From a virus, in IMG/VR virus record IMGVR_UViG_3300044999_000022, positions 22,835 through 86,834 of that record: DNA of 64,000 nt; one strand, 5' to 3'. This document shows positions 2,860-31,342 of the stretch, piece after piece (the stretch's first letter is position 1; every line of letters starts with the position of its first letter). A program made the position numbers and the translations under genes. The notes beneath the pieces are model-generated. The model did no database searches. It had not been told where the DNA came from and saw only the letters and a list, made by a program, of their open reading frames with translations.

Positions 2860-3371
2860 TGGACCCTGCGCTGGTCGGCGCGATAGTCGCCGTGATCGTA
2901 GCTATCTTCGCGTCTATAACCGCGCCGATAGTACTGCAGATGCGCTTGGAGAAGCAGCATCGCGAGGATCGGGCAGATGACTGGGAGCGGCGTACAAAGG
3001 ACCGAGAGGCTGACTGGGCACATCAAGATGCGATTGCGGCAAAGGCGGCGAAGGAGCTGAAGACCTCTAACGGACGCATAGCAGAGGCCGTAGAGGTCAC
3101 TAATGGCAAGCTCGACGTCGTACATACTCTTGTAAACTCCAACATGACTACAGCTATGCAGGCCGAGTATGACGCGGTAACGCGCGAGCTGGCCATGATG
3201 CGTGAGGTCATGGAGTTGAAGCAGGCCGCCGGAGGAGCGCCGTCACCCGAGGCACTGGCGGCCATCAAGGCTACAGAACAGCAACTAAAGGAGCTAGCCG
3301 AAGCTCTAGGAGATCGGGCAAAGCCTGCCGAAAAGCTCCCAGACTCGGAAGCGGGAAATGAGGAGCCGTGA
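2859..3371 (+). CDS. Membrane-anchored coiled-coil protein
   Basis: N-terminal TM then heptad-rich region; TGATG coupling. Confidence 0.65.
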   Translation: MDPALVGAIVAVIVAIFASITAPIVLQMRLEKQHREDRADDWERRTKDREADWAHQDAIAAKAAKELKTSNGRIAEAVEVTNGKLDVVHTLVNSNMTTAMQAEYDAVTRELAMMREVMELKQAAGGAPSPEALAAIKATEQQLKELAEALGDRAKPAEKLPDSEAGNEEP

Positions 3372-3800: not shown

Positions 3801-4679
3801 GTGGTTAGCACGTATACACCAGCGAACACGACGGTAACGATCCTCCGGGGTACGAGCTTCGACCCCGAGGGTGACGTTGAGGACGTTACTGCGCAGATCG
3901 CGACGGGTGTGCTGTGCCAGATCAACGCCGCGAGGAATGGGACGTACGGAGTCCGGGTTTTCGAGCCGGGGACGACGGAGCCTAGTACGATCAGGACCTT
4001 TGAAGGGGTCATGCCCTCAGGGACGGGTGTTGAGAACACTGACCGCTTGGTAGACGAGAAGTCAGGCAACGTCTTTGAAGTCATTGCCGTTATCGACCCT
4101 TTGTACGAGTACCTGCAGCCCGATCTGCAGCTGGTGTTGAAGAGAGTTACTGCAACAACTCAAGTGTTATGCCGTAGAGGCAAGGACACACGGCTTATCC
4201 GTAAAGGAAGTACCGTGGCCCGCGTAGTCATATCAGCGAAAGCGATCGTTGGTATTGAGGTTGCTACGCACGAGTTCCTTGACCACGTCATAGGCCCGCT
4301 GGTTACTGCGGACGCTATCCGGTACGCGCCCGAGCGCACAGGTGTCCTAAAGTCTTCGATTCGTTACTGGGTTGTTGGGCAGACGTTGTACGTGGGAGCC
4401 TTTGCGCCATACGCGGCAGACGTCGAACTAGGACACCGTGTGTATCACCGGTTCAAGCACCAGTTGGGCCCTGAAGTTGTCCCTGAAGAGCCGTATCTGC
4501 GTCCGGCGCTGTACAAGTACCGTACGCCGGCAGATCTAGACCCGCCCGCGACCTTCCCAGTTGCGGTAGAGCATCCGGTACTGCCCTTCACGTTCGAGTC
4601 GCTTAGAGCGTACTTTGCGAACCCGAAGGGGCAGATTCACAGCATCTCGACCCGCACGCCGCTAAGGATGCCGCTGTGA
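3801..4679 (+). CDS. Head-to-tail stopper read in-frame into an HK97 gp10-like neck protein
   Basis: N-half ...TTVTILRG...TDRL.D....F.V..V...DL.LVLKRVT is stopper-like; C-half APxRTGxLxxSI...YAxxVExG is gp10-like. Confidence 0.6.
   Translation: MVSTYTPANTTVTILRGTSFDPEGDVEDVTAQIATGVLCQINAARNGTYGVRVFEPGTTEPSTIRTFEGVMPSGTGVENTDRLVDEKSGNVFEVIAVIDPLYEYLQPDLQLVLKRVTATTQVLCRRGKDTRLIRKGSTVARVVISAKAIVGIEVATHEFLDHVIGPLVTADAIRYAPERTGVLKSSIRYWVVGQTLYVGAFAPYAADVELGHRVYHRFKHQLGPEVVPEEPYLRPALYKYRTPADLDPPATFPVAVEHPVLPFTFESLRAYFANPKGQIHSISTRTPLRMPL
4215..4679 (+). CDS. HK97 gp10-like protein (internal in-frame start)
   Basis: AAGGAAG RBS before GTG at 4215; APERTGVLKSSI, YAADVELG, PYLRPAL motifs. Confidence 0.6.
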   Translation: MARVVISAKAIVGIEVATHEFLDHVIGPLVTADAIRYAPERTGVLKSSIRYWVVGQTLYVGAFAPYAADVELGHRVYHRFKHQLGPEVVPEEPYLRPALYKYRTPADLDPPATFPVAVEHPVLPFTFESLRAYFANPKGQIHSISTRTPLRMPL

Positions 4680-5191
4680 CTGGCCCGCTCCAGCACCCGA
4701 CGTCCGCACTGGTAGCTGCGTCATGGATCTCGGAAATGATCAACTTCCCGCGCAGTGGTATTAGTACACAGTTGCCTCAGGATTCGCTGACCTGGCCGGC
4801 GTTTCAAGACCTGTACGGCTCGAGCCAGGAGATCCGCCAGTTCATTACGGTTAGGGTTGTCGGCGGTACTCCTCAGCTAGACGTCCCTGTAGCCAAGCCA
4901 GTCGTTGACGTTGCGTGCTTTGCGACCAAGCCGACGTCAAATAAACCCCCATGGTTTGCCGCGGCGCAGACCATGGAGCTGATCCGTCTTGCTACTTACA
5001 ATCGCACGCTAGGCCAATTCGGCCGGGCGTTGACGATCGGGGCGGGCAACGTAAATTATAACAGCGCGCGGGTCAACCAGGCCTGCATGTACACAGAGCC
5101 CCGACAGCTTTTCGGGGACGCTCGAAACTACGCGATCTACTCGGCGGACCTTCGCTTGACCTGGGTGGAGATTGGATACGTGTTGCAATGA
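4676..5191 (+). CDS. Tail terminator
   Basis: FITVRVVGG..., VxxxC(F/W)A, terminal Y.ADL.L.W pattern; synteny before major tail. Confidence 0.6.
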   Translation: MTGPLQHPTSALVAASWISEMINFPRSGISTQLPQDSLTWPAFQDLYGSSQEIRQFITVRVVGGTPQLDVPVAKPVVDVACFATKPTSNKPPWFAAAQTMELIRLATYNRTLGQFGRALTIGAGNVNYNSARVNQACMYTEPRQLFGDARNYAIYSADLRLTWVEIGYVLQ

Positions 5192-23030: not shown

Positions 23031-23630
23031 TCAGTAGTGGAGGTGCTTCGGAGCGCAGCCTCTGCGGACAACGCGGACGGGGATCTTGGCCTCCCTAGCT
23101 TCCTGCCACGTGTACTCGTCTACGTGCGGGAATACCCAAGTGGCCATGTCGCTCCGGATACAGGCCTCGATGAGACGCCGTGGCAGGTACGTAAAGTTGA
23201 ACGTGAACATCGTAGGGTCGTCGATGTCGCTCTGCCATATCTTACGCGCTTCCTCATTGGACAGCGGCGGGTCCCGATCGGTAAGGACCTCTCGATGCCC
23301 CCAAACCCAGTAGTGATAAGCCGTGCTCGCCGGCCACAGGCGAACTGGCGCCGTCCAGACCACGTCTGGCTCTGTAGTCGCACTGATGATCATGGCGGAG
23401 TAGTCGAGCGGGTCGATAGCGCAGTCCGCATCGAGGATAAGCATCCCACTGCTCTGGACCCGGGCTGATACTTGCCAGATACGGGTCAGTAGCAATCCCT
23501 TCTGGCCGAAGGGGTGCTCTGCCGTAGGCATCACGTCAAAGGCGCGGAAGTTAGACGGTGTTGGCCCGCACTCCTTTCCCTGCCACCTGATACGCGCGTG
23601 TACTACGGACTCCAGTGCTGGCCCGTCCAT
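23031..23630 (-). CDS. GT-A fold glycosyltransferase-like protein
   Basis: MLILDADC DxD motif, FTFNFTYLPRRL, C-terminal HLH; TAATG overlap with polymerase stop. Confidence 0.6.
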   Translation of the reverse strand: MDGPALESVVHARIRWQGKECGPTPSNFRAFDVMPTAEHPFGQKGLLLTRIWQVSARVQSSGMLILDADCAIDPLDYSAMIISATTEPDVVWTAPVRLWPASTAYHYWVWGHREVLTDRDPPLSNEEARKIWQSDIDDPTMFTFNFTYLPRRLIEACIRSDMATWVFPHVDEYTWQEAREAKIPVRVVRRGCAPKHLHY

Positions 23631-26600
23631 TACGGCCTCCATAGCTCTACAGTTGTCGGATAGGGACGCTTGCCGCCTTTCCAATCTTCGTAACTAACTA
23701 GGTCGCCCCAGTTCATACCGACGTCGGCGCCTACCTTGATCGGGACGTAGTCGCCCATTACGGAGTAGGCGGATTCCTGCATGGTTTCGACTACGGTTTT
23801 GACCACATAGTCCAGGTTATCACGGTGGAACTCCCAATAGAGAGCATCGTGAATAGTGTTACGGCACCAGGCGGTCCCTTTGAGCTTGGGTCGTAGCCAG
23901 TTGAAGGCTTGGACACAAATGTCGCTGGCAATTGACTGTGGGTAGAAGGCGCAAGCCTCATTCTGGATGTCCTTCCGGTTCTGGTCCGTGATCAGGTAGA
24001 ACCGACGTCGTCGCCCGAACGGAGTGACGAGGTCTCTTCCAGATAGCGCCTGTATCTTTGCCTCCTCGCGAAATCGGACAATCCTTGGAATGACCTTGAA
24101 GAACGCCTGCAGGCCTCGCTGAGCCTCTGCAACAGGTAGGCCAAATTCATCAGCGATTGACTGAGCCTCTCGGCCGTAAGCGAGACCGTAGACATAACAC
24201 TTGACGATATTTCGTCGGTCCTTCTTGGACATGATTCCGCGGTGGGATCGTTCGGGCTGGATGACTGGTTCGAGTTCATCAAATAGGTCCCTACTCGGGT
24301 CGGAGAAGATCTCTTGGAAGTATGGTTCTTGCGCGAGCCAGGTTAGTACCCGGAGCTCGATTTGTCCATAGTCGAACTCTCCCAAGAGGTGGTCAGGGTT
24401 AGCGACCTTATACTGGCGTCGTAGTTTATCGCCACGCGGAATGACCTGAAGCGACGGCCGTTTCTGAGAAGTTCGACCTGTAGTAGTGCTGTGGAGTTGG
24501 ATGGTCGTATACACACGGCCATGGTCGAGGAATTTGTGCAGGCCAGATACGTACGTACCATCTAGCTTTGCTACCTTCCGGTGCAGGAGCATCGTCTCGA
24601 GGAACGTAACCGAGGGCCGCGCGGAGTGCGGGTCTACCTCGACCACTTCGGCACCTAGTTGGTTAGTACCGCCCTCATTGGACACGTAGCCTGCGAGACG
24701 TCTAGGGTCGATGGGCCGCCTCTTCTCGCGCTCGAGCATGATCTGCAAGGCTTCGGCGTCGGTAGTCTCGGCCATCTCACCCTTAGTGTTCCGCTTGCGT
24801 GGGATCTGGACGCCTAGCTGTCGGAGTGCGTCCTTGACCTGCATAGGCGATCGCGGATTGATTGCGCCAACCGTCCGATCCATGATGGCCTCGAGGCGGT
24901 CGAGCTCTGCTCGATACTCGCGCTGGAGTTCACGGTTGTACTTGAGGTCGACCGCGAACCCATTGTATTCCGTGAACATGAAGTTTTCCGCTGCAGCGCA
25001 TAGGAAGTCATGGAGCTGCTCCAGCCCCCACTTCTGACCGTCAGCGCGAGGCAGTACGGGTTCGATATAATTATCGTTCCGGATAAGCTGCATGTTGTAC
25101 TCGTCCAAGGCAAACGTGGCTGCGACATCCCATGCGTTGTACTTGTACAGGATCGGCTTTGGGATCGTTCCGTACCGACGTTGCTTGCCTCGTCCGAGGT
25201 ATTGCTCAATCTCCTCATCCCATCTCGGACAGCCTAGCTTCTCGACGCCCTGGTGCTTCAGTCCGTGTATCCCCGGACGTTCGTCTTGTACGTAGGACTG
25301 GTACATTGTATCATGCCAGACATGTAGGCCGCGGATGCCTTTAGCATAGAGTCCTGCGGTATCGAACTTGCCGTTTTGAAATATGAGCTCCATTCCGTCT
25401 CCGGATAGATACTCTGCCAGAGCCCCACGGACAGACTTATAGCGGCAGGCTTTCTGCCCAAACACGATAGCATGGCGGCGTGACCAAGCCATTCCAATAC
25501 ATAGAATCTTATACTTATTGGGGTGATCAAACGTCGAGTTGTGTGTGAGGAGTCCATTAGCGATCAGCGTTCCTGTCGAGGTCTTGAGGGAAACGACTTC
25601 TCGTTCTCCTACTGGAGTGATCGATAGTATACGTGCTTTGTCATAGTTGAGGCGCTTATGCCAAACCCGTTCGGCCTGACGCAATAGCCTCTCGGGGCGG
25701 AAAGTGCCTAGAGTGCGAAGGATGTCCCACCGCGCCCCGATTGACCAGGACTCATGAGGATTGCCGCTAAGTCTGTTAAGACCTCGATAATGGTTGCCTA
25801 GATCATGCGCCTTCAATATCTGGGCGACCTTATCCGCGACCGGACCGACGTTCTGTGAGAACTCCAGCATCGGATGATTGCTGGCAGGGTTCGATAGGCA
25901 GCCCTCGCTGTCTAGAAAGCCCGCCATATAGCCGCCGTCGCGAGTTTCGTTAACCTCCCAAGGCTCCGACGTAAAAGGTATGAAGTATTCAGGTCGAGGT
26001 AGTGCTTGCTGGCCCCAGCAGCGACTGTTCGGATTTGCAAAGCGGGCTGCGAGGTCTTCTGTAGTGCCCCAGCGCCACTTTGTATCAACGCCCCGCGGAC
26101 CGCGCGTCTTATAAGGCCAACGATGCAGCCCGCTGCAGACAACGCTCCCACGGTCGGTCTGCACGCGGTAGCATTGACGCGTAATGCGTCCGACGGACTC
26201 GACGATCGCGGGGCTCATCGTAGTGATCGGATCCGCACTAAACCCGACTAGCTCATCCCCTACCTCGAGGCCGCCGGCATCGGTCCAGGTTAGGTCCCGC
26301 CTGAGCACTTTCGTCTCTGGAACGAGGCATTCCTTGTCCAGGTCGGTCTCGATGTCGACCGTTAGTCTCTTGAAGTGCTTCTTCATGTAGGCTATCGCGG
26401 TCAGGGCAGCCTTCTCGGTATTCCAGACCGTATAGTACGGCGCTTCCCACTTGGGAGGCTTAGTAACGAGTTTGCCGATGTCGGTCGCCATAGACGGGAA
26501 CGACGACGCCGAGCGCAGGCAAGCGGCAGGATGGAACGTCGGGATGATCCGTACCCCAGGCAGCTCGAACTCGTTCTCACGATACGGACCGACGCGGAGG

Positions 26601-27031
26601 TTGGAAATTACGACCTTCGTCCGCAGGATGCTCTGAGCCGGCACGTTGCCCAAGGCTACGATATCCCTAACGCCTCGGTCCTTGAGTTCGGCCATTAGTC
26701 GCGGCCTGCACGCTGCGACTGCGGCAGCTGGTGGCTTGATATTCTCCCTCTTGTGGACGCATAGGCAGGCGTTTGTGATAAACGCCTTACTACGATCGAT
26801 GTGGTAGTACTGCAGTACCTTGTCCAGCAACCTACCAGATGCGCCGATAAACGGCTTGCCCAGCCGGATCTCGTTCTGACCCGGGTTCTGGCCCACAAAG
26901 GCAATGTCAGCCTTTACCGGACCGTATGAAGGGACGAAACCGTAATCGGGTCCATTAAGCGGGCAGCGCTCACAGACCGCTAGGGGATGCCGGCGCTGAA
27001 TCCCGGCATCCCCTTCGATAACTTCAGTCAT
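23630..27031 (-). CDS. polA: Family A DNA polymerase with N-terminal family-4 UDG-like domain, 3'-5' exonuclease and intein
   Basis: UDG: CxxCPL, VGQNPG, PFIGASG, TFHPA; Exo DIET / QNGKFD / YNAWD; motif A DYGQIELR, motif B K...YGLAYG, motif C HDAL. Confidence 0.92.
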   Translation of the reverse strand: MTEVIEGDAGIQRRHPLAVCERCPLNGPDYGFVPSYGPVKADIAFVGQNPGQNEIRLGKPFIGASGRLLDKVLQYYHIDRSKAFITNACLCVHKRENIKPPAAAVAACRPRLMAELKDRGVRDIVALGNVPAQSILRTKVVISNLRVGPYRENEFELPGVRIIPTFHPAACLRSASSFPSMATDIGKLVTKPPKWEAPYYTVWNTEKAALTAIAYMKKHFKRLTVDIETDLDKECLVPETKVLRRDLTWTDAGGLEVGDELVGFSADPITTMSPAIVESVGRITRQCYRVQTDRGSVVCSGLHRWPYKTRGPRGVDTKWRWGTTEDLAARFANPNSRCWGQQALPRPEYFIPFTSEPWEVNETRDGGYMAGFLDSEGCLSNPASNHPMLEFSQNVGPVADKVAQILKAHDLGNHYRGLNRLSGNPHESWSIGARWDILRTLGTFRPERLLRQAERVWHKRLNYDKARILSITPVGEREVVSLKTSTGTLIANGLLTHNSTFDHPNKYKILCIGMAWSRRHAIVFGQKACRYKSVRGALAEYLSGDGMELIFQNGKFDTAGLYAKGIRGLHVWHDTMYQSYVQDERPGIHGLKHQGVEKLGCPRWDEEIEQYLGRGKQRRYGTIPKPILYKYNAWDVAATFALDEYNMQLIRNDNYIEPVLPRADGQKWGLEQLHDFLCAAAENFMFTEYNGFAVDLKYNRELQREYRAELDRLEAIMDRTVGAINPRSPMQVKDALRQLGVQIPRKRNTKGEMAETTDAEALQIMLEREKRRPIDPRRLAGYVSNEGGTNQLGAEVVEVDPHSARPSVTFLETMLLHRKVAKLDGTYVSGLHKFLDHGRVYTTIQLHSTTTGRTSQKRPSLQVIPRGDKLRRQYKVANPDHLLGEFDYGQIELRVLTWLAQEPYFQEIFSDPSRDLFDELEPVIQPERSHRGIMSKKDRRNIVKCYVYGLAYGREAQSIADEFGLPVAEAQRGLQAFFKVIPRIVRFREEAKIQALSGRDLVTPFGRRRRFYLITDQNRKDIQNEACAFYPQSIASDICVQAFNWLRPKLKGTAWCRNTIHDALYWEFHRDNLDYVVKTVVETMQESAYSVMGDYVPIKVGADVGMNWGDLVSYEDWKGGKRPYPTTVELWRP
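25538..26329 (-). mobile_element. Intein (264 aa) with LAGLIDADG-type endonuclease
   Basis: Starts CLVPETKV, block B CSGLHRW, YMAGFLDSEG, ends IANGLLTHN followed by Ser. Confidence 0.9.
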
Positions 27032-29733: not shown

Positions 29734-30074
29734 CTCATCGCCTCCATAACGTCTCCGACGTCGTGAGGGCCCTCGTTTACTACGCCGTACGGCGGGATGC
29801 CTGGAGTAGCCCACGCCTTCTTCCAGTTGTGCGCATCGGCATCTTGCCACCTCAAACGCGCCTGCTGGGCCTGCGACGACTGAACGACCTCGCGACTGAG
29901 GGCATACAGTCCCGCTGCCCGAATCGCCTTCGCGCGGCTTCGTGACCTGCGCCGACCGAGTGCCTCCTTCAGGTACGCTCGGTCGATCTCGGTCGGGCGC
30001 GCTGCGACAGCGCCTGCTCGCAGCTGGCGCTGGCGTCGTACGTTCTCTGCGCTCGATAGTCCGGCTTTTTTCAC
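29730..30074 (-). CDS. Basic hypothetical protein between queD and folE
   Basis: GTGA overlaps at both ends. Confidence 0.5.
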   Translation of the reverse strand: MKKAGLSSAENVRRQRQLRAGAVAARPTEIDRAYLKEALGRRRSRSRAKAIRAAGLYALSREVVQSSQAQQARLRWQDADAHNWKKAWATPGIPPYGVVNEGPHDVGDVMEAMR

Positions 30075-30580
30075 GGTATCACAGGGTCCTTCTTGATGAC
30101 GATTATGTCCTTGAGAATGGAATGGATCGCGATGTACATCCGCCGGCGGGCTTCGCTTGTGGGGGGCTCTTCTGCCAGGTCCTCCAAGGTAGCCATAACG
30201 CGATCGGAAACCGGAAGGTTTCCAGGCATCCACCATGCCCAGGTCTTCGGCGTCTCGCTAACTCCGACCGCAGTGACCTCTGGGTACATGTTGACGGCGA
30301 CCTCATAGATCGCGTGCGCCATGTTCTCTGCTGTCGGATTGCCAACGAACTGCTCTAGCTCGTTGATCAGCTCGTGGTCGAAGTTGAGATCTAGCCACTT
30401 CTTGAACTTGTCCAGCTCGCGGTAGTCCCGAACGAAGCCGACCTTGTTGAGGCCTTGTGATTCCAGGACGAGGCGTACGGTATAATTATGGCCGTGCATA
30501 CGGCTACATGGGTGGTCGTCCGGCAGTCCGTTTAGCTGATGGGCCGCGCTGAAGGTGAACTCTTTCTCTATACGATACAC
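30071..30580 (-). CDS. queD: 6-carboxy-5,6,7,8-tetrahydropterin synthase with C-terminal extension
   Basis: FSAAH, C..MHGHNY, FDH..IN, NPTAEN.A, V.ETP; AGGAG RBS before GTG 30580. Confidence 0.93.
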   Translation of the reverse strand: MYRIEKEFTFSAAHQLNGLPDDHPCSRMHGHNYTVRLVLESQGLNKVGFVRDYRELDKFKKWLDLNFDHELINELEQFVGNPTAENMAHAIYEVAVNMYPEVTAVGVSETPKTWAWWMPGNLPVSDRVMATLEDLAEEPPTSEARRRMYIAIHSILKDIIVIKKDPVIP

Positions 30581-30595
30581 GTAATGACTCCTAAA

Positions 30596-30781
30596 GTGAA
30601 GGCGGCAAGCGGGACCAGTCGCTCTCTGCTGGCAAACCCCTACCCTGCGCGCGGCCGCTCTCCAGTTACAACAGGACGTAAACTCCCGCTGACCGTGGGG
30701 GCGGCATCTGACAGGTACCGGTTTCGCCCGCTTCTTGCAGCGGTACGGTACTCTTGCTCTTACCTGCGACTTGGCCTTCAC
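30596..30781 (-). ncRNA. Structured RNA, raiA-motif-like (186 nt)
   Basis: Terminal GTGAAGGC/GCCTTCAC, AGTCGC/GCGACT, GTACCG/CGGTAC, CCGCT/AGCGG, CTGTTG/CAGCAG pairings; fills the intergenic gap. Confidence 0.6.
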
Positions 30782-30793
30782 GACTAGATAGGG

Positions 30794-31342
30794 CTAGCCC
30801 GGAAGGAGGCTAGACTCCTTCGGGGTGGACCTGGTATGGCTGCCAGCTCCGGGGCCGGTCTTGTGCGCGGTGGCCTCGTCGTACGGGCTGAAGCCGCGGA
30901 GCTGGACCCACCGCTCTTCCAGGTCCGGCCACTTGTCCTTCTGCTTCTTGTCGACGGCGCGCCGGCCCATGAGCTGCTCGCCGAGGTAGAACTCCGGCTC
31001 GGTCGGGATGTCGAGCTCCTTGCCGTCCAGGCACTCCTCGTACTTGCCGATCGCCTTCAGGATCATGATGATCGTGTACAGCGCGCCCTTCGTGCCGGCC
31101 TCCTCGTCGGCGCCCCAGAGGCACGCGTTCGTGAAGTCCTTACGGTTCGCGAACTCCTGCCACGGTCCCGGCGTGTCCTGAACCGTGAACTCGAAGGCGA
31201 GCATCGGCTTGCCGAAGTTGTTGTCCGAACCGGACTCGGTGAGCTCGACGCCCGTGATGGCGAAGTGGTACTTGCCGATCGGAAGGGGTTCCCGATCGCC
31301 GGCCTGCTTCTCCTGCTCGGAGACGTTTACGCGGATACCCAT
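30794..31342 (-). CDS. DUF669-like ssDNA-binding protein
   Basis: PLP.GKY...I..VE.......GKPML.FEF.V; in the same operon as the AAA and nuclease genes. Confidence 0.7.
   Translation of the reverse strand: MGIRVNVSEQEKQAGDREPLPIGKYHFAITGVELTESGSDNNFGKPMLAFEFTVQDTPGPWQEFANRKDFTNACLWGADEEAGTKGALYTIIMILKAIGKYEECLDGKELDIPTEPEFYLGEQLMGRRAVDKKQKDKWPDLEERWVQLRGFSPYDEATAHKTGPGAGSHTRSTPKESSLLPG

Follow-up and report, generated by a model that had tools for sequence, protein, structure and literature searches.

The Locus and Its RNA Element

The DNA analysed here, referred to as the window, is a stretch of 64,000 nucleotides (nt) from the 86.8-kb IMG/VR virus record IMGVR_UViG_3300044999_000022, on whose minus strand the genes for a PD-(D/E)XK exonuclease, a Sak4-like annealing protein, a small open reading frame (ORF), an SSB-like protein, QueD and GTP cyclohydrolase I succeed one another, followed by more genes. 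The gap between the SSB-like gene and queD is occupied by a minus-strand element of 186 nt (30781..30596), and comparison with its relatives in phages and bacteria shows this region to encode, on that strand, a predicted member of an uncatalogued small RNA family. Its identity as a real RNA, belonging to a new family that is neither raiA nor queD-specific, is well supported. The original prediction had proposed here a structured, non-coding RNA, either of the raiA class or acting as a regulator tied to 7-deazaguanine or GTP levels. The coordinates, the strand and the position upstream of queD that it gave were right, with the closing helix GUGAAGGC/GCCUUCAC ending 3 nt before the AGGAG of queD, and covariance models together with covariation bear out that the RNA is structured, does not code for protein, is carried by a phage and has actinobacterial relatives.

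The gene upstream of the element (30794..31342, minus strand, as are all features of this locus) encodes the SSB-like protein, which shows weak matches to phrog_378 and phrog_2300; 69 homologues of it were recovered, none of them named, and tblastn gave no match among cultured phages and none in genome contigs. A hairpin read from the sequence, CCCGAAGGAG/CUCCUUCCGGG (30798..30824), covers the end of this ORF, where the scan called no T-run terminator. On the other side of the element, queD (30071..30580), encoding 6-carboxy-tetrahydropterin synthase, begins with GTG at 30580, behind the ribosome-binding site (RBS) AGGAG read at 30592-30588, and its product matches Pfam PTPS at 9.7e-30 over residues 4-116. 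A longer in-frame ORF is open from 30781, and translation of the region as an N-terminal extension of QueD was accordingly considered; it was rejected because the PTPS domain already starts at residue 4 of the protein read from GTG-30580. QueD orthologues of other phages begin at the same M-(Y/F)-R-I, and the 186 nt at 30781..30596 are non-coding. A scan of the window region around the element called neither a sigma-70 promoter nor a T-run terminator, and ARAGORN calls no transfer RNA (tRNA) or transfer-messenger RNA for it.

Relatives in Phages and Actinomycetota

Relatives of the element were first reached through orthologues of the upstream SSB-like gene, and not through QueD: in the loci collected with the latter (10 viral and 40 metagenomic), neither nhmmer nor blastn detected anything resembling the element. 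A similar element lies 3′ of the SSB-like gene in the phage loci L069, L070, L071, L073, L074/75 and L081; L061 and L072 have a diverged version of it. A covariance model built from five other phage loci, with the window left out (R1), matches the window at 30786..30591 with 27.2 bits (E 0.0012 in 387 kb), and a second model built from 35 minimal cores (R2) matches the 3′ core at 30666..30594 with 28.3 bits (E 0.0008); both scores are modest because of an insertion of 113 nt that the window copy carries. R1, when applied as a genome search to the record of the window itself, gave no match, though cmsearch on the window finds the element.

Pattern searches widened the set considerably. An exact 27-mer gave no match and a first degenerate pattern gave one true locus besides six coding false positives, while a 19-nt degenerate pattern taken from the conserved 3′ part retrieved 46 IMG/VR loci, of which 45 were new; among the latter, R1 gave 30 matches at E<=1. 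With a 21-nt pattern run on one genome per prokaryotic species, 55 loci were obtained, 50 of which are matched by R1, and a third pattern added three phage members of the subgroup to which the window belongs, named after its variant arm GGUCCC. In all, the core is present in about 37 other IMG/VR uncultivated phage contigs, in varied intergenic positions, and the bacterial carriers are nearly all Actinomycetota (metagenome-assembled genomes of Solirubrobacteraceae/Solirubrobacterales, Actinoallomurus, Kribbella, Nocardioides, Intrasporangium, Actinomadura and Catelliglobosispora). Within the data searched, the family was seen solely in Actinomycetota and their phages. R2 finds one match apiece in five whole Actinomycetota genomes, and it detects the motif in at least 3 of 151 sampled Actinomycetota genomes and in at least 2 of 41 in the family of genome G007, these counts being lower bounds because part of the candidates was scored. 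The diverged loci L061 and L072 are missed by both models and misaligned by MAFFT, so that they, like L216, L219 and L221, are assigned to the family from helices read by eye.

Known families and collections returned nothing comparable. Rfam 15 gave no match over the whole window at gathering thresholds and only two chance eukaryotic matches in 30450-30950 at E<=10, and no Rfam family was called at the motif in the phage and bacterial member loci tested. At the DNA level, neither the element region nor the surrounding 8 kb gave a match in the phage collection, and a 90-nt core gave none in the phage and plasmid collections, these searches being of low sensitivity with such short queries. A description of the motif was not found in the running text of the literature searched, including PMC11109978 and PMC8632094.

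A Hairpin-Free Core Closed around Two Pseudoknots

The minimal members of the family span about 80 nt and contain no ordinary hairpin and no hairpin loop. The 5′ half of their core consists of the 5′ arm of helix P1, C-R-A, AGYCGC (P2), RGGUAAGA, 5-7 nt (PK1), CAUCAC, CCGUUU (PK2) and GNCAGCAGAGA, and the 3′ half, an unbroken strand, of GCGRCU (P2′), GGACGG (PK2′), R, PK1′, N and the 3′ arm of P1. Along this continuous 3′ half, successive parts find their partners in four distinct segments of the 5′ half (P2, PK2, PK1 and P1), with P1 closing around the two crossing helices, PK1 and PK2, that make the pseudoknots. Three single-stranded stretches, C-R-A, RGGUAAGA and CAGCAGAGA, are strongly conserved, the core holding about 25 conserved unpaired bases, and extra hairpins are optional, appearing at three different sites in different members.

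The window copy, as delimited by the R1 and R2 matches (30596..30781), is made of this core and one insertion. P1 is formed by GUGAAGGC (30774..30781) pairing with GCCUUCAC at 30603-30596, the latter arm (30596..30603) ending 3 nt before the AGGAG at 30592-30588. P2 is formed by AGUCGC (30766..30771) and its partner GCGACU (30617..30622, pairing as 30622-30617), a helix of the original prediction that proves real, as it belongs to the conserved family and covaries. The single-stranded joiner AGGUAAGA (30758..30765), conserved in alignments A7, A9 and A10, leads to the 5′ arm of PK1, GCAAG (30753..30757), whose partner by homology is CUUGC (30605..30609, pairing as 30609-30605). Beyond the insertion (30640..30752), which separates PK1 from PK2, lies the 5′ arm of PK2, GGGUUU (30634..30639), homologous to the CCGUUU, CGGUUU and GGGUUU of other members; it pairs, with one U-U mismatch, with GGUCCC (30611..30616), a variant of the GGACGG, GGACCG and GGACCC found elsewhere that the window has in common with L061, L072, L216, L219 and L221. 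Between PK2 and P2′ extends the conserved single-stranded GCCAGCAGAGA (30623..30633), holding AGCAGAGAG, which is invariant in all 35 minimal cores, these having been partly chosen by a pattern that contains it. P1, P2, PK1 and PK2 can all form in the window, where both joiners, RGGUAAGA and CAGCAGAGA, are present and the U-U mismatch in PK2 is that of the GGUCCC subgroup.

Other helices that had been proposed for the region fared less well. A pairing CUGUUG/CAGCAG would engage the conserved stretch CAGCAGAGA, which has no partner in the 80-nt minimal forms, and the pseudoknot AGCGGGA/UCCCGCU, also proposed, differs from those conserved in the family, homology indicating GGUCCC-GGGUUU (PK2) and CUUGC-GCAAG (PK1) in its place. 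The pairings GUACCG/CGGUAC and CCGCU/AGCGG are plausible and do appear in the minimum free energy (MFE) fold, but they lie inside the 113-nt insertion and have no comparative support, since this insertion, absent from all other members and the biggest in the family, is seen in the window phage only; it is drawn as a hairpin UACCG..CGGUA and a second, branched hairpin by energy prediction alone. The MFE of the 186-nt element is -76.1 kcal/mol (z = -1.58), and 11 of 200 shuffled sequences fold as well; with thermodynamics so unremarkable, it is covariation, and not folding energy, that supports the structure.

This covariation was evaluated in two alignments. In A7, comprising 30 phage sequences fitted to R1 (which includes P1, P2 and P3) with the pseudoknots left unfitted, 92.0% of the cells are paired, compared with 72.7% in shuffles, none of 500 reaching the observed value, and with 28-42% when the partners are slid. 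Changes on both sides of the pair affect 10 of the 11 pairs of P1, 4 of the 5 of PK1, 2 of the 6 of PK2 and 1 of the 6 of P2. In A10, a plain MAFFT alignment of 35 minimal cores, 88.1% of the cells are paired (76.0% in shuffles, 0/500 reaching it; 31-41% with slid partners), and PK1 shows two-sided changes in 6 of its 7 pairs. For P2, a UA-to-CG swap is found in 6 of the 30 sequences of A7 and 11 of the 35 of A10, AGCCGC/GCGGCU being met in many members. Within the GGUCCC subgroup the sequence of P2, as read by eye, is entirely different: against the AGUCGC/GCGACU of the window, L061 has AUACGUC/GACGCAU, L072 AUGUGCU/AGUACAU, L216 ACGUGCC/GGUACGU, L221 GUCUCA/UGAGAU and L219 UAGCUC/GGGCUA. Thus, judged from aligned sequences, all four predicted helices, P1, P2, PK1 and PK2, covary. 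Their orientation is fixed as well, since the U-G pairs of PK2 (present in 26/30 and 21/30 sequences of A7) would read A-C on the opposite strand.

Comparison with raiA and with Queuosine-Related Riboswitches

The resemblance to raiA, on which part of the original prediction was founded, does not withstand comparison. The Rfam model of raiA (RF03072; 209 positions, cut-off 101.3 bits) found nothing at E<=10 in 30450-30950, in the whole 86.8-kb record, in seven member loci or in the bacterial member L184:5150-5420, and the search with all of Rfam gave no credible match either. Moreover, genomes G006 and G010 carry the motif and also a separate, true raiA at another locus, which served as control: in the Actinoallomurus genome it lies on the minus strand of L204 at 1501-1741 (151.4 bits), and in Nocardioides agariphilus on the minus strand of L205 at 1501-1786 (129.7 bits). 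R2, run on these raiA loci with its filters off, did not exceed 11.1 bits and gave 4.9 bits in the overlap with raiA itself, values that correspond to noise. The identity with raiA was rejected on these three grounds, namely the lack of RF03072 matches, the location of raiA elsewhere in the same genomes and the noise-level scores of R2 there. The raiA of Actinoallomurus does contain the words GCCGCAGG, GGUAAG, GAGAGCG and CAGCAGG, in an order and with a pairing that differ from those of the motif, and these shared short words explain why a reader would sense a resemblance.

As described in the text of PMC12968392 and PMC10861870, raiA is an RNA of about 200 nt with a P1 in three parts (P1a-c, with GU and GGU bulges), helices P3-P6, two pseudoknots, 51 conserved positions and the linker UUAGA(C/A)GUAA. 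The motif and raiA are alike, to judge from the same text (PMC12968392), in being orphan, highly structured non-coding RNAs of Actinomycetota (raiA also of Bacillota) that are closed by a P1 and combine two pseudoknots with numerous conserved unpaired bases, and a conserved single-stranded stretch with GGUAAG occurs in the raiA of Actinoallomurus as well. They differ in that the motif has a core of about 80 nt with only P1, P2 and two pseudoknots, to be compared with some 200 nt and P1a-c and P3-P6; in that the core, compared by eye with the description in those texts, has no counterpart of the raiA linker, its nearest word being AGGUAAGA; and in that no covariance-model similarity exists in either direction.

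The other reading that the locus invites, a riboswitch for 7-deazaguanine compounds or GTP, is equally unsupported. The motif resembles preQ1 riboswitches in being, in the window phage, a pseudoknotted RNA before queuosine/7-deazaguanine genes, but the models of preQ1 classes I-III match neither in the window nor at the region, and the association with queD appears incidental: of 33 phage loci, only three, namely the window, L069 and L072, have queD 3′ of the motif, and not one queuosine-pathway protein was found among the 21 downstream bacterial proteins scanned. A regulator tied to 7-deazaguanine or GTP, as originally suggested, was consequently rejected.

Neighbouring Genes, Promoters and 3′ Ends

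A gene of the SSB-like family lies upstream of the motif in 14 of 33 phage loci, and there the motif begins 6-9 nt after the SSB-like stop, or 33-36 nt after it when an extra hairpin intervenes. Other upstream genes encode a single-strand annealing protein, large terminase, head protease or a tail/lysin protein, and those downstream, apart from queD, a RepB-primase/DUF3987 (L081, L141, L098), large terminase, endolysin and proteins without family.

Other elements were observed at the same phage site. In L076 (=L004; 3005-3200) and in L077/L078 (=L006/L005; 3008-3200), a different conserved element of about 190 nt sits between the SSB-like gene and queD; its final part consists of a T-arm-like GGGUUCGACUCCC and, after it, an arm resembling an acceptor. 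Neither ARAGORN nor Rfam gives a call for these elements in L004 and L006. An apparently ordinary tRNA was seen by eye directly 3′ of the SSB-like gene in L079 (~3110-3185), and in the near-identical contigs L063-L068 and L080 another, different GC-rich conserved element of about 110 nt, with a hairpin after it, lies about 10-120 nt after the SSB-like stop and before queD. RNA genes seem to accumulate on the 3′ side of the SSB-like gene. Hairpins placed between the SSB-like stop and the motif in L081 (2995-3025), L098 (1468-1500) and the window (30798-30824, minus strand) display in their loop ACCUCCUU, which we take to be the anti-Shine-Dalgarno end of 16S ribosomal RNA; in the window hairpin, CUCCUUC is paired with GAAGGAG.

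Among bacteria, six related Solirubrobacteraceae have a TetR gene upstream of the motif and a DUF308 (HdeD-like) gene downstream, and in Actinoallomurus the upstream gene encodes a MerR-type regulator, while an HtpG-like ATPase is encoded at some distance on the downstream side. Additional neighbours are two aldo/keto reductases, DUF7144, PLDc_N-SHOCT, MpsC and a class II aminoacyl-tRNA synthetase, and in Catelliglobosispora koreensis (L183) the motif (4479-4568, minus strand) lies about 90 nt downstream of the gene for RNase P RNA (4656-5044) on the same strand. According to rough ORF calls, the flanking bacterial genes occur in all four combinations of orientation, a co-directional gene within 250 nt downstream (<=250 nt) exists in about half of the loci, and several copies are flanked on both sides by opposite-strand genes. 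In four Solirubrobacteraceae loci (L196, L175, L171 and L144), a near-palindrome GUGCAACAAUUGACAC and a conserved stretch of about 50 nt were noticed 60-130 nt 3′ of the motif, before the DUF308 gene; they may represent an operator of the upstream TetR together with a leader.

Upstream of the bacterial motif, 19 of 48 loci have a -10-like box of sequence GGG[TA]A[TCG], the start of which lies 24-35 nt ahead of the joiner behind the 5′ arm of P1, where 2.4% would be expected; by eye, GCATCG or a word close to it often stands 13-14 nt in front of the box. The consensus for SigB homologues given in the text of PMC8346170 reads GTTTAA-N12-14-GGG(A/T)A(A/T), its three G and the A at the fifth position being almost invariant, and the bacterial box fits the -10 element of such a SigB-type consensus.

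Two further observations concern the window at large. The only tRNA that ARAGORN calls in it (41577-41657, minus strand) has the anticodon UUA and would read the UAA stop codon. An ORF of 1133 amino acids (23630-27031, minus strand) encodes a polymerase that, by eye, combines a uracil-DNA-glycosylase-like N-terminus with a family A polymerase bearing an intein-like insert.

Proposed Role of the Motif

On the basis of these comparisons, we tentatively favour the view, short of regarding it as probable, that the motif is an autonomous RNA module instead of a regulator of the adjacent gene. It is favoured because the neighbours are varied and often not co-directional, the motif is present as a single copy, it appears to own a stress-type promoter, and its conserved unpaired surface is large. 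In bacteria, transcription would proceed from its own SigB-type (general stress) promoter, with the RNA starting at or just before P1, and the exposed conserved loops would act on a conserved host factor. The phage copy, sitting behind a gene of the replication module, the SSB-like one, that would be strongly expressed, would be expressed from the replication operon, so that during infection the phage may produce a look-alike of a host stress RNA.

Several observations weigh against such an autonomous module. The ORF calls behind the argument from orientation are crude, and the next RBS or start follows P1 by 13-31 nt in the 10 phage cases measured, a spacing that fits a cis role too. The 19 of 48 loci with the promoter-like box are not independent because many are related (nine from Actinoallomurus and several from Solirubrobacteraceae), and the window has no SigB-type box, the equivalent place being taken by GGGCUA, with the wrong fifth base. 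As the window displays no box, no sigma-70 promoter and no terminator, the phage RNA would have to be part of a longer message. In 42 bacterial loci, the 55 nt 3′ of the motif show no more structure than do random windows (mean z -0.26, with 11 loci below -1 and 9 above +1), and this lack of excess 3′ structure gives no support to a discrete, terminated small RNA. Finally, P2, PK2 and CAGCAGAGA seem more invariant than they really are, given that two search patterns contained them; the near-invariance of P2 in particular is partly due to these two patterns holding its 3′ arm.

The main rival, which we consider unlikely, treats the motif as a cis element of the messenger RNA: a knot at the edge of the next RBS that would protect or insulate the downstream message (from queD-folE onward) against 5′-end decay by RNase J/E or, in a variant, would stabilise the abundant SSB message or provide it with a leaky 3′ end, thereby setting the ratio of the two messages. 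The tight phage spacing described above, both from the SSB-like stop (6-9 or 33-36 nt) and to the next start (13-31 nt), agrees with such an element, the bacterial -10-like box would bury the 5′ end of the RNA in the P1 helix, and diverse downstream genes are natural for a generic stabiliser. However, many bacterial copies have, by rough calls, a convergent or distant downstream gene, about 25 conserved unpaired bases exceed the needs of a mechanical block, and neither the exoribonuclease-resistant RNAs nor any other Rfam model match. A more specific proposal, and in our judgement an improbable one, is that the motif constitutes a new catalytic or ligand-responsive RNA class with a nested double-knot topology like that of the hepatitis delta virus (HDV) ribozyme but a different core, which would be stress-induced through SigB-type promoters and copied by phages into replication, packaging and lysis operons to cut or insulate messages or to read host stress. 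The likeness to HDV-like ribozymes, including the minimal 'theta' ones, is our own comparison with what the text of PMC10879173 describes: P2 of the motif would correspond to P1 of HDV, PK1 to its P2, and PK2, directly following the 3′ arm, to P1.1; the first helix likewise has 6-7 bp, the 3′ flank pairs immediately, and such ribozymes are frequent in phage intergenic regions.

We consider it very improbable that the motif is a new self-cleaving ribozyme class processing phage polycistronic messages, even though its nested double pseudoknot, its patchy distribution (at least 3/151 Actinomycetota genomes, at least 2/41 in one family), its frequency in phages with varying neighbours and its highly conserved unpaired core are all usual hallmarks of small ribozymes or reminiscent of HDV. 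In HDV-like ribozymes, the catalytic cytosine occupies the first position of J4/2 and P3/L3 forms P1.1, according to the text of PMC10879173; the motif has neither P3/L3 nor P4, in place of J4/2 it has one A or G (the window, a G) and not that cytosine, an extra helix, P1, encloses the fold, no Rfam ribozyme family, HDV-type ones included, matches, and a dedicated promoter at the 5′ end of the RNA in bacteria would be unusual. We give a similarly low rating to a riboswitch or sensor for a general stress ligand or condition, through which bacteria would control stress genes and phages would read the state of the host. An aptamer-like core, compact, pseudoknotted and rich in conserved unpaired bases, the promoter-like box directly upstream and co-directional bacterial genes such as DUF308/HdeD-like (six related loci), aldo/keto reductases (two), DUF7144, PLDc_N-SHOCT, MpsC and the HtpG-like ATPase would suit this role; yet no expression platform is conserved, the fold in no case takes in the RBS, a nearby co-directional gene is missing for about half of the copies in bacteria, a palindrome and a promoter-like stretch intervene between motif and DUF308 gene in Solirubrobacteraceae, and the phage neighbours share no pathway. 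Scarcely conceivable, finally, is a divergent member of the raiA class, or a riboswitch that would sense preQ0, preQ1, 7-carboxy-7-deazaguanine (CDG) or GTP and control queD-folE-TGT: the position directly upstream of queD in the window phage and two others, and the presence in Actinomycetota of raiA, likewise with a closing P1, two pseudoknots (in the text of PMC12968392 and PMC10861870) and a few of the same words, are outweighed by the want of any raiA or preQ1 model match, by raiA being a separate gene and by the rarity of queD (3/33 phage loci).

Implications

Two tempting annotations, a raiA-like RNA and a 7-deazaguanine riboswitch, are corrected by these results. If the favoured reading of an autonomous RNA module is true, the motif would represent a new class of small knotted RNA common to Actinomycetota of the soil (among them Solirubrobacterales, Actinoallomurus, Kribbella and Nocardioides) and to their uncultivated phages. 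Its core of about 80 nt, free of hairpin loops and with about 25 conserved unpaired bases, is attractive for structural work and for ribozyme, ligand and protein-partner screens, and the apparent SigB-type promoter offers a handle, namely stress induction in culturable carriers. In view of the phage copies, it would then have to be asked why a virus should bring along a stress RNA of its host.

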